A stretch of 64,000 nucleotides of DNA from Treponema sp. GTDB taxonomy: Bacteria > Spirochaetota > Spirochaetia > Treponematales > Treponemataceae. The notes below the pieces were generated by a model. The model was given only the letters and a program-made list of their open reading frames with translations. It ran no database searches and had not been told where the DNA came from. Of this stretch, positions 23,335 through 53,631 are shown piece after piece (within the stretch, counting starts at the first letter, position 1; each line of letters opens with the position of its first letter). Both the position numbers and the translations under genes were made by a program. The stretch covers positions 2,242 to 66,241 of the forward strand of contig JAZUJH010000137.1 of the NCBI GenBank assembly GCA_045642665.1, in the 5' to 3' direction.

Positions 23335-23412
23335 TTTTTAGAAATGAATACGAGTTCTGGGCCTTGAAATTACAAGGCCTAAAGACATTGCGTTTTCACG
23401 GTAGCCGCTAAA
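23335..23412 (+). repeat. Family-B element, partial copy
   Basis: TTTTAGAAATG..CGAGTTCTGGGCCTTGAAATTACAAGGCCTAAAGACATTGCG matches the other B copies; abuts the DUF1848 stop. Confidence 0.75.
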
Positions 23413-24346
23413 ATAATTCAAGCTGAAAGTTCTTTTCCCTTAGAAAGGATTTCTGTTTTGCAGGAACTATTTTGTCTGTGGGAAGAGGTTTCCCGAATAG
23501 CATAGGAGAGTGCGGGTCGTGCACCTTATAGTTTTTCAGGGCAAGCTCTGTGTTGTCCGTTGCGTAACAGTATCTGCAGCCTGCAGGGCATGAACTGTAG
23601 GCACCCATGTCGCTGTATTTTATGCAGTGACAGCCTTTTCTTGTTCCTCTGTGAGTCAGGTCCTTGAATTCAATGTTAAAAATTTTTCCGATCTCACTGA
23701 GATTAACGCATCCGCTTTTTTTGATTCCAAATCTTGTGAAATCCTGATAAGTTTCGCATGTCTGAAGTTCGATTGAATATTTTTTTGCAATACGGCCGAG
23801 TCCTTCCGCAAGTTCTTCCATTTCTTCGGCTGTAAGAATCTGTATATCCTTCATATTGAATTTTACTTTCCCGTACATTTCCACGAAGCTGAAAATACAT
23901 TTGGCGACATGTCCCTGCAGTCTTGCCGCCATGTGCTCAAAGGTAATGAGGTGCTGTTTTATTGTATATTTCTTTGTAAGGAGCACAGGGTCGTAGCGCC
24001 AGAAAATTTTATCTTTTCCCACAAGCTTTTCAAGTTTTAAAAGAGTGTCAATGCTCTGGTCTGCGGAAGGGACATCACTTTCCATATCCTTTCCGTATGC
24101 AGTTATAGTGTAGAAGAAGATTGCGTTGAATTTTTCCGTTATTTTTTTTACATGCTCCAGCAGAGGTTCATAATTTTTGGAGCAGAAACACAGGCAGTCC
24201 ACTTTTGAGGGAGAAAGCTCGTAGCGGCTTATCTGTTCCGGGTTATACGGATTTCTTACAAGTACGTAACCTTCCTTCAGTCGTTCCATTAGCCATGGTG
24301 TGTAGTAGTGAACAATGTCCGTTCTTCCGCTGATATTCAGAATCAT
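23408..24346 (-). CDS. DUF1848 domain protein (radical-SAM/SPL-like)
   Basis: ILNISGRTDI, VRNPYN, FCSKN, WRYDP, DMGAYSSCPAGCRYCYA. Start ATG 24346 after GAGG. Confidence 0.88.
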   Translation of the reverse strand: MILNISGRTDIVHYYTPWLMERLKEGYVLVRNPYNPEQISRYELSPSKVDCLCFCSKNYEPLLEHVKKITEKFNAIFFYTITAYGKDMESDVPSADQSIDTLLKLEKLVGKDKIFWRYDPVLLTKKYTIKQHLITFEHMAARLQGHVAKCIFSFVEMYGKVKFNMKDIQILTAEEMEELAEGLGRIAKKYSIELQTCETYQDFTRFGIKKSGCVNLSEIGKIFNIEFKDLTHRGTRKGCHCIKYSDMGAYSSCPAGCRYCYATDNTELALKNYKVHDPHSPMLFGKPLPTDKIVPAKQKSFLREKNFQLELF

Positions 24347-24926
24347 AGGTAACCTCATGAATATGGTAATGATTTGCACTCTTTGGTTCAAGTTGTGCAC
24401 AAGTTGTTTACACATTTTATGAACAACTTAGTAACATCATTTGAACTGGAATTTGCTGGTGCATTGTTCAGGTAATTTGGACCTTCATTGAAGTCGGATA
24501 ATGGTTTTTAAGTGGTTTCAGGTGCTTATCGTAAAAATTTTTGAAATGTTTAAGATTTTTTTTATGTTTCTCTTGATATTTTTATATTCTGTGTTATCAT
24601 TGTTAGTGAATGGGGAATATTGTGAATATTTTGGGGATAAAAAGTTTATAACATTTTCTTTTCTTCTGCAACTTATTTCATGGTTAAAATTCATCAGACC
24701 ATCACTGGTATTGTGTTTTTAGGGAGGGGAAATTCTATTGACACAATGCTTGCATAACTCCCGGGTGGGGGCGGGCAGAATCAGGTATTTTCAGACGGCA
24801 GTTAAAAATGTTTTCTGAAGTATATGGTAAATTTTTTATAAGTTTTTCTTAGTCCTTGGATGAGGGCAGTTTCAGTAAAAGTGCTGTATTATCTCCTGCA
24901 TACACTGAAAACTGCTCTCGTCTTTT

Positions 24927-25652
24927 TTATCTGCACAGTTCACCGTCAGCAATTTTGATTACATGGTTACACATCTGGACAATCTTTGAGTCGTGTGTAG
25001 AGAAGATGAATGTTGTGTGAAGTTCCTCATTAAGTCTCTTCATTAGGTTAAGAATCTGGTCACCGTTTTTTGAGTCAAGGTTAGCTGTCGGTTCATCGGC
25101 AAAAATAACGCTTGCCTTTGTTACAAGTGCACGGGCAATGGCAACTCTCTGTCTCTGTCCGCCTGAAAGTTCAGAAGGTTTGTGACGTTTCCATGATGTA
25201 AGCCCTACAGTTTCAATGAGATAGTCAACCCATTCCTTTTTCTGCTCAGCATTGAATCCCTGTGTGAGTCTGGAATTACCCAGTTTGAGAGGAAGGCTTA
25301 CGTTTTCTTCAACGTTCAGGACAGGAACAAGATTGAAGTTCTGGAAAATGAAACCAAGTTCCTGTCTGCGGATATCTGTTAAAGCTGAATCAAGTTTGAG
25401 CGGAATTTTTCCTCCGTCCGTAAGTTTTACGTCCTTGTAAATATCCTTGCCGTTTATGATAACCTGTCCGCTTGTAGGAATGTCAATGAGTCCCATTATG
25501 TTAAGCAGGGTAGATTTTCCTGAACCAGAAGGACCTGAAAGACATGTAAATTCTCCTTCCTCAATTGAGAATGAAATGTCCTTGAGTGCAGCAACTGTTA
25601 CGTCACCCATTATGTAGTTCTTGTATATGTTGTTAAGACGTACAACTTCCAT
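24927..25652 (-). CDS. ABC transporter ATP-binding protein, LolD/MacB-like
   Basis: GPSGSGKST, LSGGQRQRVAIARAL, ADEPTANLDS, STHD. Confidence 0.93.
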   Translation of the reverse strand: MEVVRLNNIYKNYIMGDVTVAALKDISFSIEEGEFTCLSGPSGSGKSTLLNIMGLIDIPTSGQVIINGKDIYKDVKLTDGGKIPLKLDSALTDIRRQELGFIFQNFNLVPVLNVEENVSLPLKLGNSRLTQGFNAEQKKEWVDYLIETVGLTSWKRHKPSELSGGQRQRVAIARALVTKASVIFADEPTANLDSKNGDQILNLMKRLNEELHTTFIFSTHDSKIVQMCNHVIKIADGELCR

Positions 25653-25678
25653 GTATCCGCTCCTTTATGTTCCGTAGA

Positions 25679-26845
25679 TTAATAGTCCAATGCAATTGAA
25701 AGCTTTGTTCCTAAGGTACAGTTTATATCAGTACCGTAGTTTACAGTAATACCGGTGTTAAGATTTGCATGAGGGAATGTGTTCTTTAATACAAATCCTG
25801 GGGTTATATAACCTTTCTTGTTTGTAAGATCGTGATAACCTGCAAGGACAAGAGCTATTTTGTTATTGAATAGTCCGTTCCATCCCCATTGTTCACCTAT
25901 TTCGCAAGTATTCTTGTTTTCTGTAAAATCATAGCCGTGACGGTATTCAATATTGATTCCCATGTTAGGTGCTGACCATTTTCTGTAGAATCCTGCTATA
26001 ACATTCAGTTTGTCAAAGCTCTGAAGATTCATGCCTTTTTCAATCTTAAAATCAATGTCACCGTGCATGTAGGCATCAAAACCGAATATGGTGCGCTTGA
26101 GTTCAAGACCGGCGATTGTAGAAAAATCAGTTGCTTCCGGGTGATACTGGTGTGCGCTTAAACTTATAAGTGTATCGAATACAACAAAATCAAAGAGGCC
26201 GGCATAGGATACATCCTTCAGATTTACGTTTGTGTTTATGTTTGTGTCAATGAACCCTGATGCGCTGGAAGGAATGGTTCCTTTCATGAGACCTGCGAAA
26301 GTTAGATTTGTGGATCCGAAGGGAATGCTTACGGTTCCTGTTATTGTATTGCCTTGAGTGTTTCCGAGAACCGTATTTGAGTCAAAAAGTCTGCAGTTTC
26401 CCCAGCTTATATTTTTTTTCCCCACGCTTATAAACATTCTGTCCCACAGATTATAGTCCATGTACATCTGGTAAAGTTCCAGTGATGGGCTTGTGTTCGT
26501 GAGACTTGTATAAATGTCTGCAAATATTTTTATGGGAGATACAGGCCGGGAGGAAACATAAAAGTGGTTCGCTAAATTTAGGTATCCTGTATGGCTTATT
26601 CCTGCGGAACTTACGATTAATCCATAGCCTATGTCTGTATCAAGATGTCCGCTGAAGGTTATTGGGTATGTTGATACAACGTCAGTCACTTCCTGCTCTG
26701 TTTCATCAGTAGTTTCCAGGTCAGTGGCGTCATCAAAAAGAAAATCAAAGTCTTCTGACGACGCATCCTCAATAGATTCCTCCGCTGTCAGAGCAGTCAC
26801 TGTAAAAGTGAGAAGTACAAGGCTCAGGGCTATGATTTTTTTCAT
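25679..26845 (-). CDS. Putative outer-membrane beta-barrel protein with an acidic N-terminal linker
   Basis: Signal peptide, acidic stretch, alternating aromatic/hydrophobic strands, terminal aromatic (LSIALDY). Confidence 0.6.
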   Translation of the reverse strand: MKKIIALSLVLLTFTVTALTAEESIEDASSEDFDFLFDDATDLETTDETEQEVTDVVSTYPITFSGHLDTDIGYGLIVSSAGISHTGYLNLANHFYVSSRPVSPIKIFADIYTSLTNTSPSLELYQMYMDYNLWDRMFISVGKKNISWGNCRLFDSNTVLGNTQGNTITGTVSIPFGSTNLTFAGLMKGTIPSSASGFIDTNINTNVNLKDVSYAGLFDFVVFDTLISLSAHQYHPEATDFSTIAGLELKRTIFGFDAYMHGDIDFKIEKGMNLQSFDKLNVIAGFYRKWSAPNMGINIEYRHGYDFTENKNTCEIGEQWGWNGLFNNKIALVLAGYHDLTNKKGYITPGFVLKNTFPHANLNTGITVNYGTDINCTLGTKLSIALDY

Positions 26846-26872
26846 TTTCAGGTTCCTTTAGTGCTTAAAAAA

Positions 26873-27670
26873 TTACTGGCTTGCCATCATTTCGAGATAG
26901 TTTTTTGTATAAACCATGTCGCTCTGCTTGTCAAAGTTAACGTTAGTTATGGTAACCTGTGTCTTTTCGTACTGAAGCTTTCCGTCAATTTTTTTTCCGC
27001 GCAGATTGTCTACGATAAGCATCTTGTGCGGAACGGATCGACCGTTATTTGCTTTCTGATAGGAAGGAATTGCTGTTGTGCGCAGGAGCTGGCTTGAAAG
27101 ACTGTAATCTTCCTTCTTGCGGATAAGTCCGTCTTCTTCTGTAACCCAGAGCTTTATTTCAGGGTAGTCTAGATTCTTTGCAGTTGCAAGGAGATGGAAT
27201 TCGACACAGTTGTAGGAACCGAGCTTAACTTTTTTCGCATAGTCAATTTTATAGTCCCTTACAAAGTGCATAGGCGAAAAGTCACCGTTGTTTGCATTTG
27301 TGTTCTGGAATTTGTTCTGGCTGCTTGTAAATGTAAACTGATTGTCATGGGGATCATAGAACCAGATGACATTGTCGTACTGTACGTATCCCTTGCCTTT
27401 GTCCGCTGTAGGTTTTGTAACAAGAATCGTATAGCGGCTGGTGCTGTCCCTTCTGTGCATGATTGCTTCCGTAAGAGTAGTTCCCTGTCCCGGTTTTTCC
27501 TGTACGAGTGAGTAATATGCGTTGAAATCTGAACCTTCAAAATTTGTGCTGGCGTCAGTTTTTTTAAGAAGAGCAACAGCTTCGTTCTGGCTTAAGTTTT
27601 GTGCATGAAGTGACGCAGCTGTAATAAGTGTAGCTGTGATAATCATGAATATTTTCTTTGTAGGTTTCAT
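26873..27670 (-). CDS. Outer-membrane lipoprotein-sorting protein (LolA-like)
   Basis: Signal peptide; KPTADKGKGY, DNVIWFY, YPEIKLWV, KKEDYSLS, PHKMLIVD. Confidence 0.8.
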   Translation of the reverse strand: MKPTKKIFMIITATLITAASLHAQNLSQNEAVALLKKTDASTNFEGSDFNAYYSLVQEKPGQGTTLTEAIMHRRDSTSRYTILVTKPTADKGKGYVQYDNVIWFYDPHDNQFTFTSSQNKFQNTNANNGDFSPMHFVRDYKIDYAKKVKLGSYNCVEFHLLATAKNLDYPEIKLWVTEEDGLIRKKEDYSLSSQLLRTTAIPSYQKANNGRSVPHKMLIVDNLRGKKIDGKLQYEKTQVTITNVNFDKQSDMVYTKNYLEMMASQ

Positions 27671-27715
27671 TTTAATCTCCTGAAATAAAATTCAGCCTGA
27701 TGAAGTCAAATAAAA

Positions 27716-29002
27716 TCAGACTGTTGCTGAAAAGGCTTTGGCCGGACTAAGATGAATAATCTTATTGAGCGTCAAGAACACAGACACCAAAGTTGCAGCG
27801 GAAATGCCTGCAAGTATGCAAACAGTTTTTATGAAACTGTAGTCCGGTGCAATTTTTCCTCCAATCAGGAACAGGTCAAAGGCCGGTATGAAAGAAAAAT
27901 TAAAGCAGCCTATAATTCCGCTTAAAATAAATGAAAATATAATTCCTATAATGAATCCGAAGACCAAAATAAGGAAGACTTCCGCAAAAAATAATTTAAC
28001 AACCCCCTTAGACTTTAAGCCAAGCGCGCGGAAAGTGCTTGTCTCAATAATTCGCTTAAGAATTACAACTCTGTAGGAGCATCCAATTCCTATTGCTACT
28101 ATTAGAACAAGCGGAATGATAATAAGATACACAATAAGTTTAAGGGCCTTTGTCATCATTACAACTTCAGGGCGGTTTGCATCCAGTGTTATAAGTCCGT
28201 AAATGTTTCCCTCATACATTCTTGGAGCTTCAGAGAAGAATTTGTCTTTGTTCTCAGGAATAGGTGCCATGGGAATCTTTCCGGAAAGTTTTTCCTGGAG
28301 AACTTCAAGCTGTTTGTTTGTGATGGAATTATTGTGAGTGTAAATTCCAAGCCTGTTTACATAATCTTCTGGATAGCCTGCAAGTTTGGTAAGGGAATTT
28401 ATATCAAGGTATGCGGTGTACATGCCGAACAGACTGGAATCCTGGAAAATTCCCAGCACTGTAAGTTTTAGCGTGTTGCTGTAACCGTATATTGTGTTTG
28501 TAAGAACAGTAACCGAATCTCCTGCATGAATACCAAGAAGCTTTGCGATAGGCTGGCTGAAAAGGATATAGTCCTCTGCATCTGAAAATTCTGCTCTTTC
28601 TGTGAAGGTGAAAACATCAAGAAGATTCTTTTCATCTTCAATGTTTATGCCCTTGAGAATCCTTGAAAGAGTTGTGGCTCCTTCAAAATAGAACTGTGTG
28701 TTTGCTCCGTCATAGTCAAATCTTTTATAGACTTCGGATTCAATTCCCATTTCTGAAAGGGTTTCTTTAATCAGCTGAACCTTTTCGTCCGGATTATCAA
28801 TTGCATAGATATTTCCGTTGGCCAGCTGCAGTTCTCCGCCATAATACTGCACGGCCTTTGTATTTAAGGCTTTGAGCATACCGTCGGAAACGGCGGTCAC
28901 GGCAAGGATTATGCATACAGAAACAGAACATACTGCAAAAAGAGAGATGTATTGTTTTCTTCTCTGTACAAGAGATTTTAGCGCGTATTTAAAATAGAAC
29001 AT
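27716..29002 (-). CDS. FtsX/LolE-like ABC permease
   Basis: N-terminal TM, periplasmic domain, RIIETSTFRALG, three C-terminal TMs. Confidence 0.85.
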   Translation of the reverse strand: MFYFKYALKSLVQRRKQYISLFAVCSVSVCIILAVTAVSDGMLKALNTKAVQYYGGELQLANGNIYAIDNPDEKVQLIKETLSEMGIESEVYKRFDYDGANTQFYFEGATTLSRILKGINIEDEKNLLDVFTFTERAEFSDAEDYILFSQPIAKLLGIHAGDSVTVLTNTIYGYSNTLKLTVLGIFQDSSLFGMYTAYLDINSLTKLAGYPEDYVNRLGIYTHNNSITNKQLEVLQEKLSGKIPMAPIPENKDKFFSEAPRMYEGNIYGLITLDANRPEVVMMTKALKLIVYLIIIPLVLIVAIGIGCSYRVVILKRIIETSTFRALGLKSKGVVKLFFAEVFLILVFGFIIGIIFSFILSGIIGCFNFSFIPAFDLFLIGGKIAPDYSFIKTVCILAGISAATLVSVFLTLNKIIHLSPAKAFSATV

Positions 29003-29010
29003 AGTTTCCT

Positions 29011-30465: not shown

Positions 30466-30469
30466 AATA

Positions 30470-31507: not shown

Positions 31508-31544
31508 TAGAGAGCTTGGTTTATAAAGATGTTGGGATTCTGAA

Positions 31545-32644: not shown

Positions 32645-32663
32645 TAAAGACTACGAAAACATA

Positions 32664-32782
32664 AGGGCATCTTAAAAAGACTTTTCAGAGATGCCTGTAA
32701 GTTTTAATCCTTGAAATTACAAGTCTTGAGGCATTATGTTTTCAAAGTTGTCTCTAAGATTTGGAATTTTTAGGGATTCCCA
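32664..32782 (+). repeat. Family-B element, full copy
   Basis: AGGGCATCTT...AGAGATGCC-TGTAAGTTTTAATCCTTGAAATTACAAG...AATTTTTAGGGATTCCC. Confidence 0.85.
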
Positions 32783-32798
32783 TAAAAAGTTTGGTATA

Positions 32799-36942: not shown

Positions 36943-37063
36943 GGGAACCTCTAAAAACTTCAGTTTTTTAGAGGCAACATTAGAAATGTGATGTTTAAAA
37001 CCGAGCCGATTCAGCGGTTTTAAACTCGACGGTGCACCTCGATTAGGGTTTATAGAGGTGTCC
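36943..37063 (+). mobile_element. Family-C MITE-like element, copy 1 (121 bp), TA on both sides
   Basis: Termini GGGAACCTCT...AGAGGTGTCC; 12 mismatches against copy 2 by manual alignment; preceded by a family-A hairpin (36903-36938). Confidence 0.8.
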
Positions 37064-37156
37064 TAAAATAAATAAAAGTGGCTTAGCGGAAAGAATTTTG
37101 TTAAACCACTTTTATTTGTTTGACGGAAAGTTTTAAAACTTCTGTTTTACTTTCCC

Positions 37157-42083: not shown

Positions 42084-42440
42084 ATAAATTCCTCCATTAA
42101 TTAAATGCACCAATCTAATGTTACTGCCGTTGGTTTCATTTGATTGTTAAATAAATGATAAAGGCGAATTTGTTATCCGTAAATGGAATTTTTTACGATA
42201 TTTTTTTGAAATTTTTCATATCTCTGCTTAAAAAAATTGGTGGAATAAGAAAAAGGTTTAAAATCTTACAGGAAAATTTATGTTTTTTTCAGTTTATGGC
42301 AGGACATAACAAATCACCGCAGAATTTCTGATTAAATTAAACCCTGCGATGAAATTTTTGATTCTGTTTCCGGATTGTCTGTACATATATGGATATTATT
42401 TTTGAGATTATGCAGTTCCGTTTATGTAAGTGGCTGTATT

Positions 42441-42496
42441 GGGTATCTCTGAAAAAATATTTTTCAGAGATGCCTGCGAGTTTTACTCCTTGAAAT
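42441..42496 (+). repeat. Family-B element, 5' half
   Basis: GGGTATCTCTGAAAAA...TTTTTCAGAGATGCCTGCGAGTTTTACTCCTTGAAAT. Confidence 0.8.
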
Positions 42497-42567
42497 ATGT
42501 GCAGTTCCGCTGTTTTTTCTTCAACGGTTCCGAACTGCTGCATTTTGTTTCTATATTCTTACGATTC

Positions 42568-44346
42568 TTACGCAATATTTTTAAACTGTGACATGTAAAG
42601 TTCATAATAGAATCCCTTTGAATCCATAAGTTCCGCAGGTGTTCCCTGCTCTACAATTCCGCCGTCATCAATTACAAAAATTCTGTCCGCATTTTTTATG
42701 GTAGAAAGTCTGTGGGCAATAACAAAGGATGTTCTTCCTTTCAACAAATTTTCGATTCCCTGCTGCACTAGAATTTCTGTATGAGTGTCAATAGAACTTG
42801 TAGCCTCATCAAGAATAAGAATCTTAGGTTTGCTCAGCATTGTGCGTGCAAAAGCGACCAGCTGTTTCTGTCCGTTACTCAGTCCGCCTCCGCGTTCGCT
42901 GAGCTTTGTGTTGTAACCTTCGGGAAGTTTTGAAATGAAGTCATCCGCGTGAACCATTTCTGCGGCCCTGTAAACTTCTTCATCTGTTGCACCAAGGTTA
43001 CCGTAGCGTATGTTCTCCATGATCGTACCTGTGAACAGATAATTTTCCTGTGTCATAACGCCCATCTGCTTTCTGAGACTCTTGAGAGTTACCTCCTGAA
43101 TATTATGACCGTCAATTTTTATTGCACCTTCCTGGATATCATAGAAGCGAGAGAGCAGATTTACTACCGTTGTTTTTCCTGCTCCTGTAGGACCGACAAG
43201 TGCAATTGTTTCTCCAGCATTTACACAGAATGACATGTTTTCAAGAATCTTTATGCCGTTGCCGTAAGAGAAGGTTACGTTTTCAAACTTCACGTCGCCT
43301 TTCACTTCCGGAAGATTTTTTGCATCACAAGCGTTCTTTACGCAAGGATCCGTGTCAAGAATCTCGAATACACGTTCTGCGGCTGCAATGTTTGTGACAA
43401 GCTGGTTATAGAAGTTGCTCAGGTTCTGTATCGGCTGCCAGAACATTCCCATGTAAGTTCCGAATGCAATGAGAGTTCCGATGCTTACGTCTTCAACTCC
43501 AATCACTTTTATGCCGACATAGTACATGAGAACCGCACCGATTGTTCTGCAGAAAACTGTTGCACTGAAGAAACTGTCCGTAAGATAAACAGCCTTCGTG
43601 TAAGTATCCTTATAGTCCTTTGCAAGTTTTGAAAATTCTTCGTTTGTTTCTTTCTCACCGTCAAAAGCCTGTACAACACGGATTCCGCTGATGTCTTCAT
43701 GAAGGAAAGCGTTGATGTTTGAACTTTTCTTTCTGAAGCTTTCCCAGAGTATGTTCCCGAACTTTTCGATAAGGAAAAGAAGAACAACCAGAACCGGAAG
43801 AGTACACAGTGCGGCTGATGCAAGAATAGCATTCTTTGTAAACATGATTACAACAACTGCAACAAGTGTAAGAAGTTCTGGAATAAGTGTCGTTACACTG
43901 TTTTCAAGTATTTCCTTCAGAGAGTTTACGTCACCGATAATTCTTGCAAGAATTTTTCCTGTCGGACGGGAATCAAAGAACTGGAAGTCCAGAGTCTGGA
44001 TGTGGTCAAAAAGCTGCTGACGTATGTCAAGGATAACGTGATTTGAAACTTTTGCCATTATAAACATTCTGAGCTTAACAAGAAGAACCATAAGAACATT
44101 CAGTCCGAGTACAATTCCTCCAAGAACCAGAAGTCCTTTAAGATTTTTCTGAGCAATATATTTGTCAATGGCAGACTCCACGAAGAGTGGATTGACGGTT
44201 GTAATGCCGACGCAGATTAGCATTATGAAAAGCACAAAGCATATCTGCCATTTAAATTTCAGCATGTAGGAAAACAGTCTTGTAAGAACAACGGATGTCT
44301 TCATCTTCCGCTGCTTTTCGTCTTCCTTGTATGAATTAAATTCCAT
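42568..44346 (-). CDS. Multidrug-type ABC half-transporter (TMD+NBD), subunit 2
   Basis: GPTGAGKTT, LSNGQKQL (degenerate signature), LDEATSSID, AHRLST. Confidence 0.92.
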   Translation of the reverse strand: MEFNSYKEDEKQRKMKTSVVLTRLFSYMLKFKWQICFVLFIMLICVGITTVNPLFVESAIDKYIAQKNLKGLLVLGGIVLGLNVLMVLLVKLRMFIMAKVSNHVILDIRQQLFDHIQTLDFQFFDSRPTGKILARIIGDVNSLKEILENSVTTLIPELLTLVAVVVIMFTKNAILASAALCTLPVLVVLLFLIEKFGNILWESFRKKSSNINAFLHEDISGIRVVQAFDGEKETNEEFSKLAKDYKDTYTKAVYLTDSFFSATVFCRTIGAVLMYYVGIKVIGVEDVSIGTLIAFGTYMGMFWQPIQNLSNFYNQLVTNIAAAERVFEILDTDPCVKNACDAKNLPEVKGDVKFENVTFSYGNGIKILENMSFCVNAGETIALVGPTGAGKTTVVNLLSRFYDIQEGAIKIDGHNIQEVTLKSLRKQMGVMTQENYLFTGTIMENIRYGNLGATDEEVYRAAEMVHADDFISKLPEGYNTKLSERGGGLSNGQKQLVAFARTMLSKPKILILDEATSSIDTHTEILVQQGIENLLKGRTSFVIAHRLSTIKNADRIFVIDDGGIVEQGTPAELMDSKGFYYELYMSQFKNIA

Positions 44347-44378
44347 TTGTATAAATCCTGTTAGTTGTCTAACTGATT

Positions 44379-44493
44379 AGGGCATCTCTAAAAAAATCAG
44401 AGATGCCTGCGAGTTTTAATCCTTGAAATTACACGGCCTAAAACATCGCGTCTTAAAAGTTGCTACTAAAAATTGTAATTTTTAGAGGTTACC
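44379..44493 (+). repeat. Family-B element, full copy, between the two ABC subunit genes
   Basis: AGGGCATCTCT...AGAGATGCCTGCGAGTTTTAATCCTTGAAATTACA...CTAAAAATTGTAATTTTTAGAGG. Confidence 0.88.
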
Positions 44494-44494
44494 A

Positions 44495-46249
44495 TTATTC
44501 ATTTACTGCTGCTGGAAAGCTTCTGTACTGGTTCACCTCGGAAGGAAGTTCCCCGTACTGTGCCATCCATGTCTGGTAGTAAAGACCTTTCTGTTCAAGA
44601 AGTGATTCATGAGTTCCGCGTTCGGCAATTCTTCCTTTGTCAAGAATTATTATTTCGTCTGCAAAACGTACTGAACTGATTCTGTGGGCGATAATAATTT
44701 TGCTGGAATCAGTTACGCTTCTTATTGTCTTCTGAAGCTTCTGTTCAGTTTCCATGTCCAGTGCTGATGTTGAATCATCAAGAATGAGAACAGGAGTTCT
44801 TTTTGCTAATGCGCGTGCAATTGTGAGCCGCTGTTTCTGTCCTCCGCTAAGTCCTACTCCGCGTTCACCGATTACAGTCTTCTCTTTTTCAGGAAGAGAC
44901 TGCACGAATGCTGATTCAGATTTTTCGATTGCAGTTTTCACTTTGTCCGGATCAAGACAATCCCGTTTACCGAATGCAACGTTCTGTGCAATTGTATCAC
45001 TGAAGAGAAAAACATCCTGTGTAACAGGTGCAATGTTCTTTCTCAGCTGATGAACATCAAGTTCCTTAATGTCAACTCCATCGAAGGTAATTGTTCCGCC
45101 TGTGGTATCGTACATTCTTGTCATAAGATTTACGATGGAAGTTTTGCCGCTTCCTGTTGCTCCCATAATACCGAGAGTTTTTCCCTGCGGAAGATTGAAG
45201 CTTATTCCCTTAAGAATTTCTTTTCCGCTGCGACTGAAATCAACCTTGTCAAAAACAATGTTGCCCTTTGCGTTATCAAGTTCAACTGCATCATTTGCAT
45301 TTGTGATTTCAGGAATCTCGTTGTAAAGATTTTTGATTCTCTTCCATGATGCAACTCCGAACGAAACACCGTTCATAAGCCAGCCTAGCATTTCCATAGG
45401 CCATACCATGTTCATTGAATACATGATGAAGGCACTCAGTTCTCCTACAGAAAATTCTCCGCGTATAACGTAAACTCCTCCGTGAATAAGAACAATTACA
45501 GGTACGACCATAGATATTACCTGGATAATCGGATAATACTTTACAAAAACTTTTGACTGGGAAACGTTCAGTTCGTAGAACTTCCTGTTGTGCATAAAAA
45601 ACTTGCTCTTCTCAAAACTTTCACGGGAAAAGGCTTTTACTGTTCTGACTCCCGAGAGATTTTCTGATGCAGTATCATTCAGCACTGAATCTTCCTGGTC
45701 AATTTCATCATAAATCTTGCCAAGATTTTTTTCCATGAGAACTGCAACAAGTCCTGCAACAACCATAAGAACTGTAGGAGCAATTGAAAGTTTCCAGTTC
45801 ATCTTGAACATGCAGTAAAGAACTGCAACTGTGTGGAAGGCAACTTCAATAAGGCACTGGGAAATAAAAGACACGGCCCAGCGAACCTTGTCAACGTCGC
45901 TCTTAATTTTTGACATAATTTCGCCAGCATTGTTCTTGTCGAAGAATGATGCTGAAAGAGTCTGGACGTGTGCAAATAGATCTTTCTGCAGCGGTTCAGC
46001 AATTTTAATTCCGTTAATGTCAAATGTGATTTGCTCAGTGTATACCATGACAACTCTTGCAAGCCCAACACCGAGCATACATAAAAGTATTCTTGCAAGA
46101 AATTCAATTTTTCCTCCAACAATAACGTCATCAACAAGACGCTGTGTAAGAACCGGAGAAACCATGTCGAATAATACGTTCAAAATTGTACATAAAAGTC
46201 CTGCAATGTACAGCCACGTATAACGTTTTACGTAATTAAACAGTTTCAT
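44495..46249 (-). CDS. Multidrug-type ABC half-transporter (TMD+NBD), subunit 1
   Basis: GATGSGKT, LSGGQKQR, LDDSTSALD (degenerate Walker B typical of heterodimers), AHRISS. Confidence 0.92.
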   Translation of the reverse strand: MKLFNYVKRYTWLYIAGLLCTILNVLFDMVSPVLTQRLVDDVIVGGKIEFLARILLCMLGVGLARVVMVYTEQITFDINGIKIAEPLQKDLFAHVQTLSASFFDKNNAGEIMSKIKSDVDKVRWAVSFISQCLIEVAFHTVAVLYCMFKMNWKLSIAPTVLMVVAGLVAVLMEKNLGKIYDEIDQEDSVLNDTASENLSGVRTVKAFSRESFEKSKFFMHNRKFYELNVSQSKVFVKYYPIIQVISMVVPVIVLIHGGVYVIRGEFSVGELSAFIMYSMNMVWPMEMLGWLMNGVSFGVASWKRIKNLYNEIPEITNANDAVELDNAKGNIVFDKVDFSRSGKEILKGISFNLPQGKTLGIMGATGSGKTSIVNLMTRMYDTTGGTITFDGVDIKELDVHQLRKNIAPVTQDVFLFSDTIAQNVAFGKRDCLDPDKVKTAIEKSESAFVQSLPEKEKTVIGERGVGLSGGQKQRLTIARALAKRTPVLILDDSTSALDMETEQKLQKTIRSVTDSSKIIIAHRISSVRFADEIIILDKGRIAERGTHESLLEQKGLYYQTWMAQYGELPSEVNQYRSFPAAVNE

Positions 46250-46385
46250 TTTTTGTGAGAAATCCTAATGAAATAAAAGAAGAAATATCTTTAAAAAGTC
46301 AGGCCTGTGAGGTGAGTTCCTGAAGCAAAGATAACAATAACTAAGATGCCACGATTTTTGTGGAGACCAAATTTCTTGAAAATCT

Positions 46386-46495
46386 AAAAAAATCATTAGT
46401 CTAAGGCGAGGTATTTAGAGGAATGATTTAGATCGAGTAAGATACTAAACTAATCATAATAGTTTTACTCTATTGCGGAAATTATTTTTTGTCAA
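46386..46495 (-). promoter_or_regulatory. Promoter TTGACA-N17-TAGAGT, 9-codon uORF and overlapping terminator-like hairpin (candidate attenuator)
   Basis: -35 at 46495-46490, -10 at 46472-46467, uORF 46457-46428 (MISLVSYSI*), hairpin 46429-46390 plus T-run. Confidence 0.5.
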
Positions 46496-46699
46496 TAGAA
46501 TTATTGCTGACAAATAATTTTTTTTATTTTTATTTACTTAAATAATTTTCTGCAAAGTATGGCATCCCTGATAATTTAAAATGCGATGCTCGTCGGATTT
46601 TTGCAGTTGAACTGATGCTGCTCCGGATGCAGCATTTTCATATGCTTGTGGAATTTCAATTCAGCAGATTCCATTGATTAAAAGAAATAGCAAACGGAA

Positions 46700-47278
46700 T
46701 CATATGTTTTCTATTTTATAATTTTTGAAGATGTATGCAAAAATGAATCCGATGATGGAACCTAATATGCTTGTCGTCAGTGTGTTTACGAGAAGAAATT
46801 TCAGTGCAATACGAAAATATCCTTCCGTGATGTGACGGTGGATGAGCAGAAAAGCTGCGGGACGAATTATGAAGAGAGCTGTAATATGTGTAACTAATGT
46901 TGCCAGTGGAAAAATGAAATAATCTTTCAATGTCATGGAACCGTTTCTGGCGTTTGAATATTTTCTGAAAAGACCTGTAATAATTCCGATTGAGGTTGTT
47001 GTTATGAGAGTTGAAATCATGAAGTGAGTTTCATGGCATAAACATACAAGCAGCTGTCCGCAGAAACCTGCTATCGCTCCAGGAATTGAACCGAAGGCAA
47101 TTGCAAAGGTTCCGAGAATTGCATACTGGAATGGAATTTCAATATCGGTAAAACCGCTCGGGATATGAATGAATCTGGCTGTAATAAAAAACATAGAGCT
47201 TATTGTCCCGATGGGAATGATTGTATTGAATGCTAACGATTCCTTGTCTTTTGGTTTCTTTTTATATTCATTTTTCAT
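46700..47278 (-). CDS. ECF transporter S-component (UPF0397-like)
   Basis: RFIHIPSG...QYAILGTFAIAFGSIPGAIAGFCGQLL, multi-TM; overlaps the M48 stop. Confidence 0.6.
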   Translation of the reverse strand: MKNEYKKKPKDKESLAFNTIIPIGTISSMFFITARFIHIPSGFTDIEIPFQYAILGTFAIAFGSIPGAIAGFCGQLLVCLCHETHFMISTLITTTSIGIITGLFRKYSNARNGSMTLKDYFIFPLATLVTHITALFIIRPAAFLLIHRHITEGYFRIALKFLLVNTLTTSILGSIIGFIFAYIFKNYKIENI

Positions 47279-48608: not shown

Positions 48609-48618
48609 AGTTACGGAT

Positions 48619-48648
48619 ATTATAACAAATACAACAAAATAATGTCAA
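48619..48648 (-). promoter_or_regulatory. Promoter TTGACA-N18-TATAAT (extended TG) for the M48 gene
   Basis: Read directly; ATG follows after 10 nt, no SD. Confidence 0.6.
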
Positions 48649-48766
48649 ATTGTTTACTGAATTACGTATAAGCATGTAAATATATTCACGGCAATGTCAA
48701 ATAAGTGTATAAATTTTCATTTTTTTTATAATTGAATGAAAGTTATATTTTTGCTATAATATGGTA

Positions 48767-48781
48767 TACAATTTAATTGTG
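48767..48781. promoter_or_regulatory. OhrR-type operator TACAATT-T-AATTGTG
   Basis: One mismatch from the B. subtilis OhrR box TACAATT-N-AATTGTA; just downstream of TATAAT (48755-48760). Confidence 0.7.
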
Positions 48782-48795
48782 ATGAGGAAATATGA

Positions 48796-49242
48796 ATGAG
48801 TGAAGATAAATTTGACTGTCTTAAACTTCGTAACCAGTTGTGTTTTTCCCTTTATGCCTGCTCGAAGGAAATCATTAAGCGTTATAAGCCTATGCTCGAT
48901 GAGCTGGACCTGACTTATACCCAGTATCTTACAATGATGGTGCTCTGGGAAAGGAAGCAGATGAATGTAAAGGAACTTGGAAATTATTTGTATCTCGACA
49001 GCGGAACTTTGACTCCCGTACTGAAAAAACTTGAGGGAAAGAATTATATTACCCGCGCAAGAATGAAGGAAGATGAAAGAAATGTTCTTATCTCCATTAC
49101 TGAGGAAGGTGAATCCCTGAAAGAAAAAGCTGTAAGCATTCCTGCAAGAATGTGTTCCTGTGTTAATCTTGACAGAGAAGACGGACAGAATCTTCATGGT
49201 CTTCTGCAAAAAGTTCTTGAAGGCTTCAGGGAAGATAACTGA
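48796..49242 (+). CDS. ohrR: MarR-family organic-peroxide sensor, OhrR-like
   Basis: QLCFSLY with the conserved sensing Cys, LTYTQYL, YLDSGTLTPVLKKLE, DERNV. Confidence 0.8.
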   Translation: MSEDKFDCLKLRNQLCFSLYACSKEIIKRYKPMLDELDLTYTQYLTMMVLWERKQMNVKELGNYLYLDSGTLTPVLKKLEGKNYITRARMKEDERNVLISITEEGESLKEKAVSIPARMCSCVNLDREDGQNLHGLLQKVLEGFREDN

Positions 49243-50075
49243 TGGATCTTGTGAATGCTCCAAAACCTTTTCTCTTCAGGCTTGACGAGCTTATGGTCCG
49301 CCAGAAATATAGCACTTATCGTTCAGTGAGAAGGCTTCTGATCAGAAGCACTGTGTGTGTAAACGGCAGACAGGTTATTGAGGCGGGAACAATGATTGAT
49401 CCCCGCTATGATGTTGTGACTGTTGACGGCGAGGTGTTTCCTCTTAAGGGTGACATTTATCTGATGATGAACAAAAAGCAGGACACTGTATGCACAAGTG
49501 ATGAAGGGCAGCATGAAAGGGTTTTCCGGTCTGTTGCGCCTGAATATATTAATCCTGAATTCCTGGGAAAGCTTCATACGGTTGGAAGGCTTGACCTTGA
49601 TACGGAAGGTCTTCTGATTCTTACAACCAACGGCAAACTTTCTCACTGGCTTACGGATCCTATGTTTCATCATACGAAGAAATATTTTGTATGTCTGAGG
49701 GATGAACTTAATGCCGAAGAGAAACTTGAATATGAGCGGAAAATAGCTGAAGGTTTTTATATTGAGCCCGAAAAGAAGGCCCCTGCCTTTACCTGCAAGC
49801 CTGCAGAGATTCAGTGGATAGATGATGCGGAGAATAATCCTTACTGTAACCTGAGAACTTCATCTGATGAAATGGACTACAGGTTTACTGCATGCGTTCT
49901 TACCCTGACTGAAGGCAAGTTTCATCAGGTCAAGAGAATGTTCAGCACTTTGGGCAATCATGTAATTTTTCTGAAGCGCATTTCAATGGGGCGTCTGTAC
50001 CTTGATACATCTCTCAGGACCGGAGAATACAGGCATCTTACAGAAGAAGAGCTTGAACTCCTTCTGACTGTGTGA
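49242..50075 (+). CDS. RsuA-family rRNA pseudouridine synthase
   Basis: S4-like N-terminus, VGRLDLDTEGLLILT, TEGKFHQVKRMF; TGATG overlap with ohrR. Confidence 0.9.
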   Translation: MDLVNAPKPFLFRLDELMVRQKYSTYRSVRRLLIRSTVCVNGRQVIEAGTMIDPRYDVVTVDGEVFPLKGDIYLMMNKKQDTVCTSDEGQHERVFRSVAPEYINPEFLGKLHTVGRLDLDTEGLLILTTNGKLSHWLTDPMFHHTKKYFVCLRDELNAEEKLEYERKIAEGFYIEPEKKAPAFTCKPAEIQWIDDAENNPYCNLRTSSDEMDYRFTACVLTLTEGKFHQVKRMFSTLGNHVIFLKRISMGRLYLDTSLRTGEYRHLTEEELELLLTV

Positions 50076-50111
50076 AGGCGTTTCCTGAAGACTTTATGCA
50101 AAATGTCCCTC

Positions 50112-50149
50112 CGAGTTTAAAACTGACATCCTGTACGGTTTTAAACATC
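50112..50149 (-). repeat. Reversed, degenerate relic of the family-C central hairpin
   Basis: CGAGTTTAAAACTG...CGGTTTTAAACATC matches the reverse complement of the C middle segment. Confidence 0.6.
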
Positions 50150-50170
50150 GGCTTTCTGGGATTCCCTGAA

Positions 50171-51178
50171 TTATTTGCTAATCAATGATGCAGCAGGGAT
50201 TTTGCAGGTATAAGTCAGCGGAAGGTTTACTGCGTTTGAAAGTTCCGGGAAGCTTAATGAGCTTGAAAGATTGAAGTCAGGGTTCGTTATGCTTTTGTTT
50301 ATGAACTGTTCAATAAGGTCCACCGAGTTCATGGTATTCAGCTTTGCTGTCATAGGAACAGAGCCTTCTGAAGAGGATATTGTGTTTGTTCCGCTCGGGG
50401 TTATGGAAGCAACAGTTCCGTTTGCTGATGTCATGTTACAGGTGTTCACTGTAAATTTCCATGGAGCTCCGCCTTCGTTTTTTACGTTCAGGTTGAAGTT
50501 TATTTTTATGTCAAGGTTGACCTTTTTTAACAGCGAAGTATCAATGCCGTTGCCGCTTGTTATGGAACTTAGCATATTTGCAGCGGTTCCTGTATTCATT
50601 CCGCTTTTAAGGAGAACATTCAGAATAGTCTGGGAGTCCGGGAGGGTGACTGACGGGTTTGAAATGCTGAAACTTGGTTTGAAAACAGGCACGTCGAATC
50701 CGACGGAAAAAGGAAGGTTCACGGTACTTGAAACTGCTGAAATAACAGGAACGGAACTTACATCAAGACCTGCGGCTCCTTCAATCTTGAAAGGGATATA
50801 TGCACTGGCAGCAGAATTCTTTGCATAGCCGATTATTGTTTCGTAAGGAACCTTGAATGAGACATTGTTTCTTTCTGTTCCCATGGCCCTTACCCTGGCA
50901 CCTTCATTGGCTGTAATCTTTGTAAAGGTTCCCTGGCTTGTGCTTACATTTGCATTAAGGGATTTTATTGAAAGTTCTGCCGGATAAGGATTTGTAATGC
51001 TGTAGGCGCAGTTGAAGGTTATGCCTTCCATGTCAAGGTTCTTGATGATTACGCTGTTTACAGAAAGAGTAGGTTTTTCAACCCTGAAGTCTGAAGACTG
51101 GCAGGAAACGAAAAGTCCTGCGGCAATGGCAATGGAGGCAGCAGCCTCTAATCTGATTCTTAAAAACAATTTTTTCAT
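50171..51178 (-). CDS. LEA type-2 family lipoprotein (two LEA2 domains)
   Basis: Lipobox LFVS-C; ITNPYP...SFKVPY and a second NEGG...PMT repeat. Confidence 0.65.
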   Translation of the reverse strand: MKKLFLRIRLEAAASIAIAAGLFVSCQSSDFRVEKPTLSVNSVIIKNLDMEGITFNCAYSITNPYPAELSIKSLNANVSTSQGTFTKITANEGARVRAMGTERNNVSFKVPYETIIGYAKNSAASAYIPFKIEGAAGLDVSSVPVISAVSSTVNLPFSVGFDVPVFKPSFSISNPSVTLPDSQTILNVLLKSGMNTGTAANMLSSITSGNGIDTSLLKKVNLDIKINFNLNVKNEGGAPWKFTVNTCNMTSANGTVASITPSGTNTISSSEGSVPMTAKLNTMNSVDLIEQFINKSITNPDFNLSSSLSFPELSNAVNLPLTYTCKIPAASLISK

Positions 51179-51338
51179 GATACACTCCCTGAGATTTTTT
51201 TTATTACTATTATTGTATTACGGAATTTTTTAAAAGCAAACTTAAATTGAAGGTAATTTAAGTGATTTATTGCAGAATTCAGAAAAAAAAATACTTAATT
51301 AAGCCTGTTTGCAATTTTTTGTGCAATAAGCTGTTTCC

Positions 51339-51579
51339 GGTATCTCTGAAAATACTTTTAAGGATGCCTGCGGGTTCTGATTCCTGAAATTACAAGTCAT
51401 AAGATATTGTGTTCTTGAAGTCGTCCCCAAAAGCTTTAAGGGAACATCTAAAAAATTCAGTTTTTTAGAGGTAGCTTTAGAAATGTGATGCTTAAAACCG
51501 CGCCAATTCAGCAGTTTTAAACTCGACGGTGCACCTCAATTGGGGTTTATAGAGGTGCCCTTAATTTTTTGAGATTCAC
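51339..51579 (+). repeat. Family-B element interrupted by a family-C insertion
   Basis: B 5' part at 51339-51435. Removing C and one TTAA restores an ungapped B 3' end (24/35 identical to the 32664 copy). Confidence 0.75.
51440..51560 (+). mobile_element. Family-C MITE-like element, copy 2 (121 bp), TTAA on both sides
   Basis: GGGAACATCT...AGAGGTGCCC; TTAA at 51436-51439 and 51561-51564. Confidence 0.82.
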
Positions 51580-51612
51580 TATCTCCTGTTCCTCTTAATA
51601 AATCAGAGTGAT

Positions 51613-51641
51613 TTGAAAAACCCCTGCATATCTGTTATACT
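51613..51641 (+). promoter_or_regulatory. Promoter TTGAAA-N17-TATACT (extended TG), 7 nt before ATG 51649
   Basis: The TTG start in the ORF track is the -35 box. Confidence 0.65.
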
Positions 51642-51648
51642 TGGAGAT

Positions 51649-52443
51649 ATGAAAATTACACCGGATTATTCACTTATTTATGAAGATGATTCAATACTTG
51701 TATTGAACAAGCGTAGCGGTTTGCTTGTTGCCGCCGACCGTTATGATCCCGTTGCACCACGTCTTGATCTTCTTGCCTCAAAAGAATTCGGAGATCTTTT
51801 TGCCGTACACAGAATTGATAAAGATACCAGCGGTATTGTTATTTATGCAAGAACTGCCGAGGCCCATAAAAATCTTTCTCTCCAGTTCCAGAACCGTGAG
51901 GTGAAGAAGACTTATCACTGTCTTGTAAACGGTCATCCTCTGTGGAATGAACTTCATGTAGACCTTAAGCTTCTGCCTGACGGAGATGCAAAGCACCGTA
52001 CAATTGTAAACTCAAGGTCGGGAAAGGTTTCTGTCACTGACTTCAGGTCCGTAGGAAACTGCGGTCCTTATACATGGATAGAAGCTTGTCCTCATACAGG
52101 CAGGACTCATCAGATTCGTGTTCATCTTAGCGCAAACAATCTGACAATTGTTCGTGACCCTTTGTATTCAGGAAATCAGCATCCAGTTCTTCTTAGCGAC
52201 ATCAAGAAGAAGTGGAACGGAGATACGGAAGAAGAACGACCTCTTCTTGACCGTCTTGCCCTTCATGCATATTCAATTGAAATCACTCATCCTGAAACTG
52301 GTGAACGCGTACGCTATGTCGCCCCTTATCACCGTGACATGGAAGCTGTTCGCAAGCAGATTGCAAAGCTCTTTAAGGTTGATCCTGTTGCTTTCAGTGA
52401 AGCAAAGTATGCTGAGGAAGCTGGAAAAAAGGATTCGGAATAG
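51649..52443 (+). CDS. RluA-family pseudouridine synthase
   Basis: LNKRSGL, VHRIDKDTSG, HTGRTHQIRVH, RLALHAY. Confidence 0.92.
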   Translation: MKITPDYSLIYEDDSILVLNKRSGLLVAADRYDPVAPRLDLLASKEFGDLFAVHRIDKDTSGIVIYARTAEAHKNLSLQFQNREVKKTYHCLVNGHPLWNELHVDLKLLPDGDAKHRTIVNSRSGKVSVTDFRSVGNCGPYTWIEACPHTGRTHQIRVHLSANNLTIVRDPLYSGNQHPVLLSDIKKKWNGDTEEERPLLDRLALHAYSIEITHPETGERVRYVAPYHRDMEAVRKQIAKLFKVDPVAFSEAKYAEEAGKKDSE

Positions 52444-52452
52444 GAGCTGATT

Positions 52453-53448
52453 ATGACTGCACATTTTTCCAAAAAGAAAACTATCTTCACTATGATTTTA
52501 TGTGCAGCCATACCAATTTTTTCATTGGAATTTCCTGCCGCAAGTTTTGAAGTGACGCCTTTTTTTTCTTCAAGGCTCGGCTGGTATGGGGAACATTTGT
52601 ATACGAAAGTTAGGAATGCGGAACATCCAATGACCAGTTATCTTGAATGGCAGCAGAATTCAGTGTTCACTTTCGGTACAAAGGCTGAAGGCAGGATCAG
52701 TAATTTTTATTTGAACGGGGAATGCTCCTTCGGAATTCCTATGCGTACAGGTTTGATTTACGATTATGACTGGTTCATGAATACTAATATCTGCCAAAGC
52801 CTTTCAGTAGGTGAAGAAAATCTTATTAGGAGTTATGATTTTGGCGGAAGTATTTCTTATCTTTTTCCCCTGAAGCATCTTGATTTCATGATTTCAGCTG
52901 GCTGTTCATACGCTTATGTTTATTTCGACAGTCCTGAAAATCAGTATGGAAGAGCGGATCCTCATAGGGGTGATTCTGACGTAATATCTTATGATTCTGA
53001 AGAGGCCGTTATTTTTTCGACTTGCCATCTTTCTTATGAACGTTATACTTTTTATTCCTGGCTGGGAGGAGAATTCAGATACCATCCTTCAGATAAGCTG
53101 TCGTTTAATTTAGCTTTCAGCCTCTCTCCATATTCCTCTACAGAATCTGAAGATCATCATGATTATGATAATGATTATGATGCTGATTCCGGGGAATATT
53201 TTCAGGATGTTTGCAGCGGTTTTTTTTGGGCATATAAGTTTAGTGCCGGCTGCAGATATTATTTTTCAAAATATGCGGGAGCTTATACAGGTGCCCGGAT
53301 AGTTTATATGCCGCCGATTTATGGCAGAACTTATACATCCGGGCATTCCCGTGTGCTTGGCTCGTTAAGTTCCGCGGATTATGTCGGTGCAAGTGAATTT
53401 ACCTGTACATTTTTTGCTGGAATAATTTTCAGAGTCAGTAATTTTTAA
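52453..53448 (+). CDS. Omptin-family outer-membrane protease
   Basis: SYLEW (OmpT SQLDW), GLIYDYDW (D-x-D-W) and SEDHH (D-x-H) match the OmpT catalytic pairs; beta-strand pattern; terminal F. Confidence 0.65.
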   Translation: MTAHFSKKKTIFTMILCAAIPIFSLEFPAASFEVTPFFSSRLGWYGEHLYTKVRNAEHPMTSYLEWQQNSVFTFGTKAEGRISNFYLNGECSFGIPMRTGLIYDYDWFMNTNICQSLSVGEENLIRSYDFGGSISYLFPLKHLDFMISAGCSYAYVYFDSPENQYGRADPHRGDSDVISYDSEEAVIFSTCHLSYERYTFYSWLGGEFRYHPSDKLSFNLAFSLSPYSSTESEDHHDYDNDYDADSGEYFQDVCSGFFWAYKFSAGCRYYFSKYAGAYTGARIVYMPPIYGRTYTSGHSRVLGSLSSADYVGASEFTCTFFAGIIFRVSNF

Positions 53449-53508
53449 CGGAAACCATTTACTTTCATTAGGGCATCCCTGTAAATTCCCTGAAAAGAAT
53501 AAATGATA

Positions 53509-53631
53509 AGGGCATCTATAAAAATTACTTTTTAGAAATGCCGACGAGTTCTGATGCCTGAAATTACAATGCTTAAAGCATCGTATTTTTTTTAGTACCC
53601 TTCAAAAATTGTAATTTCTGGATGTTCCCAT
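53509..53631 (+). repeat. Family-B element, full copy; extra terminal half-site at 53470-53480
   Basis: AGGGCATCTATAAAAA..TTTTTAGAAATGCCGACGAGTTCTGATGCCTGAAATTACA...AAAAATTGTAATTTCTGGATGTTCCC. Confidence 0.82.

Follow-up and report, generated by a model that had tools for sequence, protein, structure and literature searches.

Hairpin-rich repeats of MITE type and their orientation relative to replication in a Treponema genome

Repeats of the window and their neighbourhood

The window analysed here, a stretch of 64,000 nucleotides (nt) from Treponema sp. (contig JAZUJH010000137.1 of assembly GCA_045642665.1, positions 2,242 to 66,241), carries several copies of a repetitive, hairpin-forming element of about 120 bp, which we call family B. 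The genome is a 3.6-Mb Treponema assembly derived from a metagenome, with 156 contigs, 40% G+C and 95% completeness. We interpret family B as a gut-Treponema MITE (miniature inverted-repeat transposable element) that would be mobilised by a DDE-type transposase acting in trans, would acquire its orientation bias at or soon after insertion, and whose hairpins would act at the DNA level. We assign this interpretation a probability of roughly 0.8.

Each complete element forms three hairpins, H1, H2 and H3, and the strand that reads H1-H2-H3 is defined as the "+" orientation. Positions of the window copies (Table 1) were determined with nhmmer, using a profile made from three copies in iterative searches of the whole genome. 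All six copies listed in the original prediction were recovered by alignment and profile search, and an independent repeat search of the window likewise found the same copies (as families D1, D2 and D6). The statement that every copy lies on the plus strand holds for the canonical subfamily, but two full copies of a sister subfamily, "70", on the minus strand (36943-37064 and 51440-51561) had been overlooked.

Table 1. Copies of family B and related repeats in the 64,000-nt window.
Feature	Position	Strand	Basis
Solo terminal palindrome (terminus-loop-terminus; family A of the original prediction)	18217-18253	no strand	repeat search, nhmmer
Canonical partial copy	23333-23413	+	nhmmer, model positions 19-98
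Canonical full copy	32665-32781 (profile match 32664-32782)	+	nhmmer, sequence reading
Full copy of sister subfamily "70" (family C of the original prediction)	36943-37064	-	repeat search, nhmmer
Half copy	42441-42496	+	nhmmer, model positions 2-56
Canonical full copy	44380-44493 (profile match 44379-44493)	+	nhmmer
Canonical interrupted copy	51339-51435	+	nhmmer, model positions 3-101
Full copy of subfamily "70"	51440-51561	-	repeat search, nhmmer
Canonical full copy	53510-53629 (profile match 53509-53630)	+	nhmmer

Four of the five full copies in the window are flanked by perfect 4-bp duplications. The copy at 44380-44493 occupies the whole spacer of a gene pair for a heterodimeric ABC exporter (44495-46249 and 42568-44346, both on the minus strand). 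Its duplication, ATTA, lies at 44376-44379 and 44494-44497, and the right-hand ATTA contains the stop codon of the upstream gene. The copy at 32665-32781 has a wecA-like gene on one side and a ytfQ-like gene on the other, and is enclosed by ATAA at 32661-32664 and 32782-32785. Two further full copies are located between convergent genes: the one at 53510-53629 is flanked by ATAA (53506-53509 and 53630-53633), and the minus-strand copy at 36943-37064 displays an imperfect duplication (TTTA/TATA).

The element starting at 51339 is the older partner of a nested pair: it is broken in H3, the rest of which is found at about 51566-51579, and into this hairpin the "70" copy at 51440-51561 has been placed, with TTAA duplicated at each side. 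The partial copy at 23333-23413, which abuts the stop of a DUF1848 gene (Pfam), is devoid of the outer arm of H1 and of all of H3. Downstream of the second ABC-transporter gene, the half copy (42441-42496) comprises H1 and the start of H2. A direct repeat is present on both sides of this half copy (ATGCAGTTCCG at 42410-42420 and ATGTGCAGTTCCG at 42497-42509), which suggests a local duplication or deletion event and not a normal 4-bp insertion. The solo palindrome at 18217-18253 has the same termini as H1 and H3.

Architecture and target duplications

The elements are built from H1 (GGGCATCTCTAAAAA..TTTTTAGAGATGCC), the core hairpin H2 (CGAGTTYTRATCCTTGAAATTACA..) and H3 (CTCTAAAAATTGCAATTTTTAGAG), the last of which ends in the inverted terminus; the layout of hairpin, core and hairpin proposed in the original prediction matches this consensus. 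The consensus of 165 full copies reads GGGCATCTCTAAAAAATACTTTTTAGAGATGCC TGCGAGTTTTAATCCTTGAAATTACAAGGCTTAAAACATCGC GTTTTCAAAGTTA CCTCTAAAAATTGCAATTTTTAGAGG TTCCC. Its 5' terminus GGGCATCTCTAAAAA and its 3' terminus TTTTTAGAGGTTCCC constitute terminal inverted repeats, and the true ends of the element are GGG...CCC, with the 4-bp duplications outside them. The length varies between 111 and 141 bp with a mode of 118-121 bp; the elements have no coding capacity and form hairpins throughout.

Each end of the element is a palindrome of 33-36 bp built from the terminal repeat GGGNAYCTCTRAAAA, and the two ends flank the core hairpin. Palindromes of this kind are likewise found alone, as solo elements of 33-36 bp in which two termini surround a short loop (e.g., GGGAACCTCTGGAAATTGCAGTTTTTAGAGATGCCC). 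As H1 and H3 each correspond to a palindrome that also occurs on its own, the 120-bp unit looks like a miniature composite, in which two mini-elements flank the core H2.

Perfect 4-bp duplications flank 72 of the 165 full copies, whereas shuffled flanks give 6.3 on average and 15 at most, and no duplication signal was detected in these copies at 2, 3, 5, 6 or 7 bp. The duplicated words (TTAA, TATA, TTTA, ATAA, TTAT, ATTA; consensus TTWA) differ between nearly identical copies and are therefore not part of the element. Solo palindromes follow the same pattern, with perfect 4-bp duplications in 43 of 230 cases compared with 5.2 expected. The target profile is A-rich, followed by TTWA and then by a T-rich stretch, and is roughly symmetric, i.e., palindromic. 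Perfect duplications (TATA, TTAA, ATCT, TTTT, ATAC) are also displayed by copies in the related genome G002, in which a recent burst has produced copies that are about 98% alike.

Comparison of related genomes provides an empty site. The ABC gene pair, which in the window is separated by a full copy, abuts or overlaps without an element in four related species (G011, G009, G024 and G001; a comparison at species level), so that this orthologous site is empty there; the original prediction had proposed an empty-site comparison between strains. Copies in other species occupy different, species-specific places and not identical loci, and the first outcome that the original prediction named as refuting is thus not what was observed. 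Taken together, the duplications, the inverted termini and the empty site support family B as non-autonomous, MITE-type mobile DNA.

Abundance, subfamilies and distribution

Over three iterations the number of raw nhmmer matches rose from 236 to 443. These correspond to 302 non-overlapping matches genome-wide, with 165-219 of full length and 256 long enough to be oriented. The genome-wide count suggested in the original prediction thus yields about 300 non-overlapping matches, far beyond chance. In addition the genome holds about 230 solo palindromes of 33-36 bp. The 256 orientable copies and the solo palindromes together account for 1.0% of the genome and for 7% of its intergenic DNA, and elements are present in 410 of approximately 2,500 intergenic regions. 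Of the orientable copies, 236 are situated between open reading frames (ORFs) and 8 fall within a called ORF, while 12 border a contig edge. Whether copies cluster or target one another was considered as well, but the signal is not convincing, with 6 copies within 10 nt of another element compared to 2.5 expected.

The mean pairwise identity of the copies is just 57%. There are two tight subfamilies, "58", which represents the canonical form, and "70", while the remainder consists of many diverged singletons. At the sensitivity of blastn, family B occurs in 9 of 25 genomes of the same genus and in none of 16 genomes of other genera in the order. The plasmid and phage collections searched contained no match to family B.

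Orientation relative to replication

In spirochaetes GC skew marks the leading strand. We compared the orientation of each copy with the sign of the skew in 10 kb on each side of it, with the element masked. The orientable copies are co-oriented with the skew in 189 cases and anti-oriented in 67 (Fisher p = 3e-14). Within the canonical subfamily, 74-84% of the copies point the same way as the G-rich, leading-strand sequence, with a ratio of 68 to 13 in "58" and of 105 to 37 in the other canonical copies, and orientation is shared by neighbouring copies in 128 of 193 instances. The skew of the window is positive, and its six canonical copies, all "+", are in line with this genome-wide rule. Orientation in this genome is consequently not random, so that the second outcome named as refuting in the original prediction does not apply either. 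Of the replication-linked insertion bias suggested there, the link to replication is borne out genome-wide, but its origin at insertion stands less firmly, given the behaviour of subfamily "70" and of the copies in G002 described below.

The direction of the flanking genes does not account for the pattern. Co-oriented copies outnumber anti-oriented ones between leading-strand genes (56 to 27), between lagging-strand genes (43 to 10), between convergent genes (42 to 8) and between divergent genes (37 to 21); for comparison, 62% of all genes are co-oriented with the skew. As the bias is seen in all four contexts, it is not a by-product of gene direction. The bias also does not grow with age, as shown by both proxies: co-orientation amounts to 26 of 33 copies with a perfect duplication, 20 of 25 with one mismatch and 56 of 80 with two or more, and to 50, 48, 49 and 42 of 64 copies in the successive score quartiles.

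Two possible causes were considered and rejected. A polar chromosome motif (KOPS- or Chi-like) carried by the element is not apparent: the 6- to 8-mers that rank highest for strand skew are all missing from it, its strand log-odds are near 0, and the only strand-skewed words present are lower-ranked, T-rich 6-mers, mostly on the bottom strand. An asymmetric target motif is likewise at odds with the roughly symmetric target profile.

It is possible, if doubtful, that insertion is random and that the bias is made afterwards, when anti-oriented copies are lost or selected against because of hairpin instability or clashes with replication. Such a process would be compatible with the youngest bursts, which are unbiased or even reversed: "70", the youngest local subfamily, has 16 co-oriented and 17 anti-oriented copies, and the recent burst in G002 has 3 and 9. 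The termini are moreover nearly symmetric, and how a complex would sense orientation at insertion is hard to picture. Together with the copies in G011, G013 and other genomes, which display no clear bias (23 to 14), these observations speak against an orientation set at insertion. The closed genomes of the same genus, G143 and G123, contain just one or two copies each. On the other hand, a bias that builds up by loss is difficult to reconcile with its flatness across score quartiles and duplication states, the element is free of the top strand-skewed words of the genome, and its two strands are equal in folding energy.

We therefore regard the orientation bias as firmly established, but only in this genome and only for its canonical family, and see as its most likely source, by analogy with several families of insertion sequences (IS), a transposition complex that would be coupled to the replication fork at or soon after insertion. 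In a survey of IS, orientation was found to be non-random with respect to fork movement, even where the transposable element duplicates its target (Gomez et al. 2014, PMC3971601). The authors traced this bias to an interaction in which the transposase binds the beta sliding clamp, and argued against selection after insertion (PMC3971601). The elements of that survey bear a transposase, and MITEs are not mentioned in it (PMC3971601), whereas the biased family B is gene-less; transcription of a transposase gene therefore cannot cause its bias. A gene-less, near-symmetric and duplication-making element with 74-84% co-orientation would thus provide a clean case in which to ask whether transposition complexes sense fork direction.

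The search for a transposase

A Pfam scan of the ten ORFs that adjoin the window copies found no transposase among them; the remark in the original prediction that the window lacks one is upheld for these ten ORFs, to which the scan was limited. The search suggested there for an autonomous element with the same ends was likewise negative in this genome and in G002, although absence from a metagenome bin of 156 contigs is a weak absence. Termini are frequent, with about 690 matches per strand. Fourteen pairs lie 300-6000 bp apart with matching 4-mers; the pair that was traced (contig C1) turned out to be the outer ends of two separate copies, and the remaining candidates are expected by chance. 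Orphan termini in this genome are mostly further solo palindromes. In G002, the orphan terminus at C2:859725 belongs to a truncated copy, and the recurring GGGGATGTCTAAAAA is not the end of an IS.

Known transposase genes of the genome were likewise rejected as partners. Those with the domain PF01609 (DDE_Tnp_1) belong to an IS982 element (contig C63) and an IS1182-like element (C106), and an IS256-like sequence is the main repeat at which the assembly breaks; the ends of all of these are unrelated to family B. IS256-like elements make duplications of 8-9 bp. PF01609 is absent from five of the eight element-bearing relatives searched, and the other three have weak or fragmentary matches. Neither a PF01609 gene nor a Y1 gene was found in G002, despite its recent burst of copies. 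The failure to find matching ends, the unrelated IS of this genome and the empty result in G002 are difficulties for a transposase of the proposed kind.

Other sequences at contig ends were noted along the way. Fragments of the IS256-type (mutator-like) transposase, together with the downstream end, recur at the ends of contigs C71, C140, C46, C100, C131 and C73. Further repeats in such positions are CRISPR arrays and a G+C-rich repeat. There are two arrays (left ends of C153 and C81; right end of C123), one with the repeat ATCTACAACAGTAGAAATTTAATAGGAATTCTGAAC, which ends like Cas12a-type repeats, and the other with GTCGCATCCTTCACGGGTGCGTGAATTGAAAC. The G+C-rich repeat of about 140 nt (..TTCCGGCCCAGCCCCGATTGCAGTGGAAATGGGCAGGGCCGATTGGAACGGAAAGCGGGTGATGG..) is found in about 15 places, at the ends of C5, C153, C57, C50 and C100.

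Duplications of 4 bp at T/A-rich sites are known in the IS5, IS701 and IS1380 groups, but membership of family B in any of these groups cannot be claimed. Family B would be mobilised by a DDE-type transposase that makes cuts staggered by 4 nt, is supplied in trans and is absent from this assembly.

A different kind of enzyme also has to be considered. Hairpins at both ends of the element would be expected of a REPIN- or PATE-type unit that a Y1 (HUH) transposase, either a RAYT or one of the IS200/IS605 kind, transfers in single-stranded form, and the bias towards one replication strand resembles that of IS200/IS605 families (PMC3971601). However, a search for the Y1 domain (PF01797, Y1_Tnp), which includes RAYT, gave 0 matches in this genome (G000) and in G002 and G011, the two copy-rich relatives that were checked, and the presence of Y1 genes across the genus does not track that of the elements. 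Near-identical copies of family B moreover carry different flanking 4-mers, with the left matching the right, while Y1 elements carry their right cleavage site along and make no duplication. We consider such an origin very improbable. Of the two options named in the original prediction, a non-autonomous MITE or a REPIN-like family, the first is supported by duplications, terminal inverted repeats and the lack of coding capacity, and the second is disfavoured by the same duplications and by the lack of a Y1 or RAYT gene in this genome, G002 and G011.

DNA hairpins or structured RNA

Single strands of the element fold far better than shuffled sequences (z -3.8 to -6.4), and the two strands are equal in this respect. 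RNAalifold returned no structure for all 165 copies, and the consensus fold was used in its place. A comparison of 27 copies, drawn from ten species or more, yields a consensus structure that contains H2 and H3, and double changes that keep the pairing occur at 14 of its 30 pairs. The base of H2 (CGAGTT...AACATCG) and the linker to H3 are nearly invariant across these 27 copies from at least ten species, and the inner stem of H2 covaries. Of the stem pairs, 73% are Watson-Crick pairs, and mismatches in the stems are frequent.

The nature of these mismatches is informative. For every A:C mismatch there are 1.96 G:T mismatches among the co-oriented copies but 0.52 among the anti-oriented copies, i.e., the asymmetry follows the replication strand, as a mutation bias, and not the strand of the element. 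The copies thereby retain an internal record of the mutation bias of the replication strands. No strand-specific constraint on an RNA is seen in this pattern, and the hairpins would accordingly act at the level of DNA.

A search against Rfam gave no match at the gathering score. With relaxed thresholds the sole recurrent, full-length match on the same strand was TD-1 (RF03155), with 16.7 and 24.1 bits for two copies; the gathering score of TD-1 is 64.5 bits, and the copies of family B fall below it and are not members by the rule of Rfam. One further match to TD-1 elsewhere in the genome has E = 2.6e-8. In the alignment, TD-1 and family B have exactly in common a core of CUGCGAGUUU, a variable, covarying stem and AAACAUCGC(A)UU, and in both a long A/T-rich hairpin comes next. 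Within Treponemataceae, TD-1 scores above the Rfam cut-off in 31 of 91 genomes and at E <= 0.001 in 51 genomes of 14 genera.

These matches give some weight to the view that the many copies of family B encode a structured RNA, which would be a small RNA or would regulate in cis, as TD-1 has been read, and that the repeats, by whatever means they spread, are kept for a working transcript. The covarying inner stem of H2, the conservation of its base and loop across species and the weak full-length matches to TD-1, which has been proposed as an RNA (PMC1950547), point in this direction. The family-wide conservation in Treponemataceae of the CGAGTT...AACATCG base, with its covarying stem, exceeds what a passive spacer would display, and counts against hairpins without a further function; this hairpin could have a putative role as an RNA or as a site of protein binding. 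Nevertheless, we consider a preserved transcript quite unlikely. The orientation of the elements is unlinked to the neighbouring genes (same direction in 64 and opposite in 68 tandem contexts), and the equal folding of both strands, the frequent mismatches in the stems and the dependence of the mismatch asymmetry on the replication strand are not what an RNA-level constraint would leave. Neither a promoter-like nor a terminator-like site was found in the copy at 44380, and nothing reached the gathering score of Rfam. Finally, that the element moves as DNA is shown by its target duplications and by the solo termini.

Relation to TD-1 and to known mobile repeats

Weinberg et al. (2007) introduced TD-1 (28 copies) and TD-2 (36 copies) as candidates for structured RNAs, which they saw in T. 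denticola alone (PMC1950547). The authors noted covariation, many disrupting mutations and overlaps with the reverse complement (PMC1950547), which for TD-1 is the combination that a palindromic mobile element gives. Both TD-1 and family B are multicopy, intergenic units of Treponema of about 120 nt with several hairpins. They differ in that the T. denticola type of TD-1 possesses another 5' hairpin (GATAAACAG..CTGTTTATC) and an extra hairpin, and ends in ..TATAGGAG just before a start codon, oriented with the gene, while family B is unlinked to gene direction. Family B, unlike TD-1, has inverted GGG...CCC termini and 4-bp duplications, and TD-1 has been described as a candidate RNA, not as a transposon. 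Judged from these sequences, family B is a relative of TD-1 that shares a module with it, and not a member of TD-1. The original prediction knew of no description of family B; this remains correct at the Rfam gathering score, but not for the core hairpin, which is common to the published TD-1 motif. A census of 2024 reports that Treponema genomes are rich in MITEs, and family B is not described there (PMC11602168).

The T. denticola-type units show peculiarities of their own. In those examined (L131-L138) the terminal sequence is AAAAAGTTTTTATAGGAG, and the following gene has its start codon about 8 nt further on; the same 17-mer is also present just upstream of the TD-1 unit. Such a unit therefore appears, from its sequence, either to bring along or to duplicate the ribosome-binding site of the gene that follows. 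In one genome (L140, G119:C1:599348-599970) four TD-1 units are arranged in tandem with a period of 165 nt.

The relationship provides the orphan Rfam family TD-1 with a concrete reading, in which its core hairpin is common to a transposon-like repeat. In this genome family B, with its solo palindromes, fills 7% of the intergenic DNA and sits inside operons, and hence matters for annotation and for screens for small RNAs and riboswitches in spirochaetes. A more far-reaching possibility, which we regard as unlikely, is that the TD-1-type repeats of Treponemataceae, family B among them, are mobilised by an undescribed mechanism, in which folded hairpin ends would be read at the fork, a 4-bp duplication would be left, an element without a gene would acquire its polarity relative to the replication strands, and CGAGTT...AACATCG would serve as the recognition site. 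If true, a motif that has long been listed as an orphan RNA would be the site in cis on which a new transposition system acts.

Among known systems, REP sequences and BIME-REPIN with their RAYT, and the PATEs derived from IS200/IS605, resemble family B as abundant intergenic palindromes, single or composite, with hairpins at the ends. They make no target duplication, however, and depend on a Y1 transposase, whereas 4-bp duplications accompany family B and its genome has no Y1 gene.

Family B also resembles the Correia elements (NEMIS) of Neisseria and similar bacterial MITEs (ERIC, RUP, Nezha), which are non-coding units of 100-160 bp with terminal inverted repeats and short AT duplications. 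Such Correia-like MITEs reach hundreds of intergenic copies, some of them inside operons, and include subfamilies and internally deleted forms. As far as is generally known of these families, they share with family B the small non-coding unit, the inverted ends, the AT duplications, the many intergenic copies and the division into subfamilies. Differences are nevertheless evident. Correia elements, according to general knowledge, duplicate the 2 bp TA, while family B duplicates 4 bp. To our knowledge, a replication-strand bias has not been described for Correia-like MITE families. In contrast to these families, the terminus of family B is a complete palindrome that is mobile on its own as well, in the form of a solo unit of 33-36 bp.

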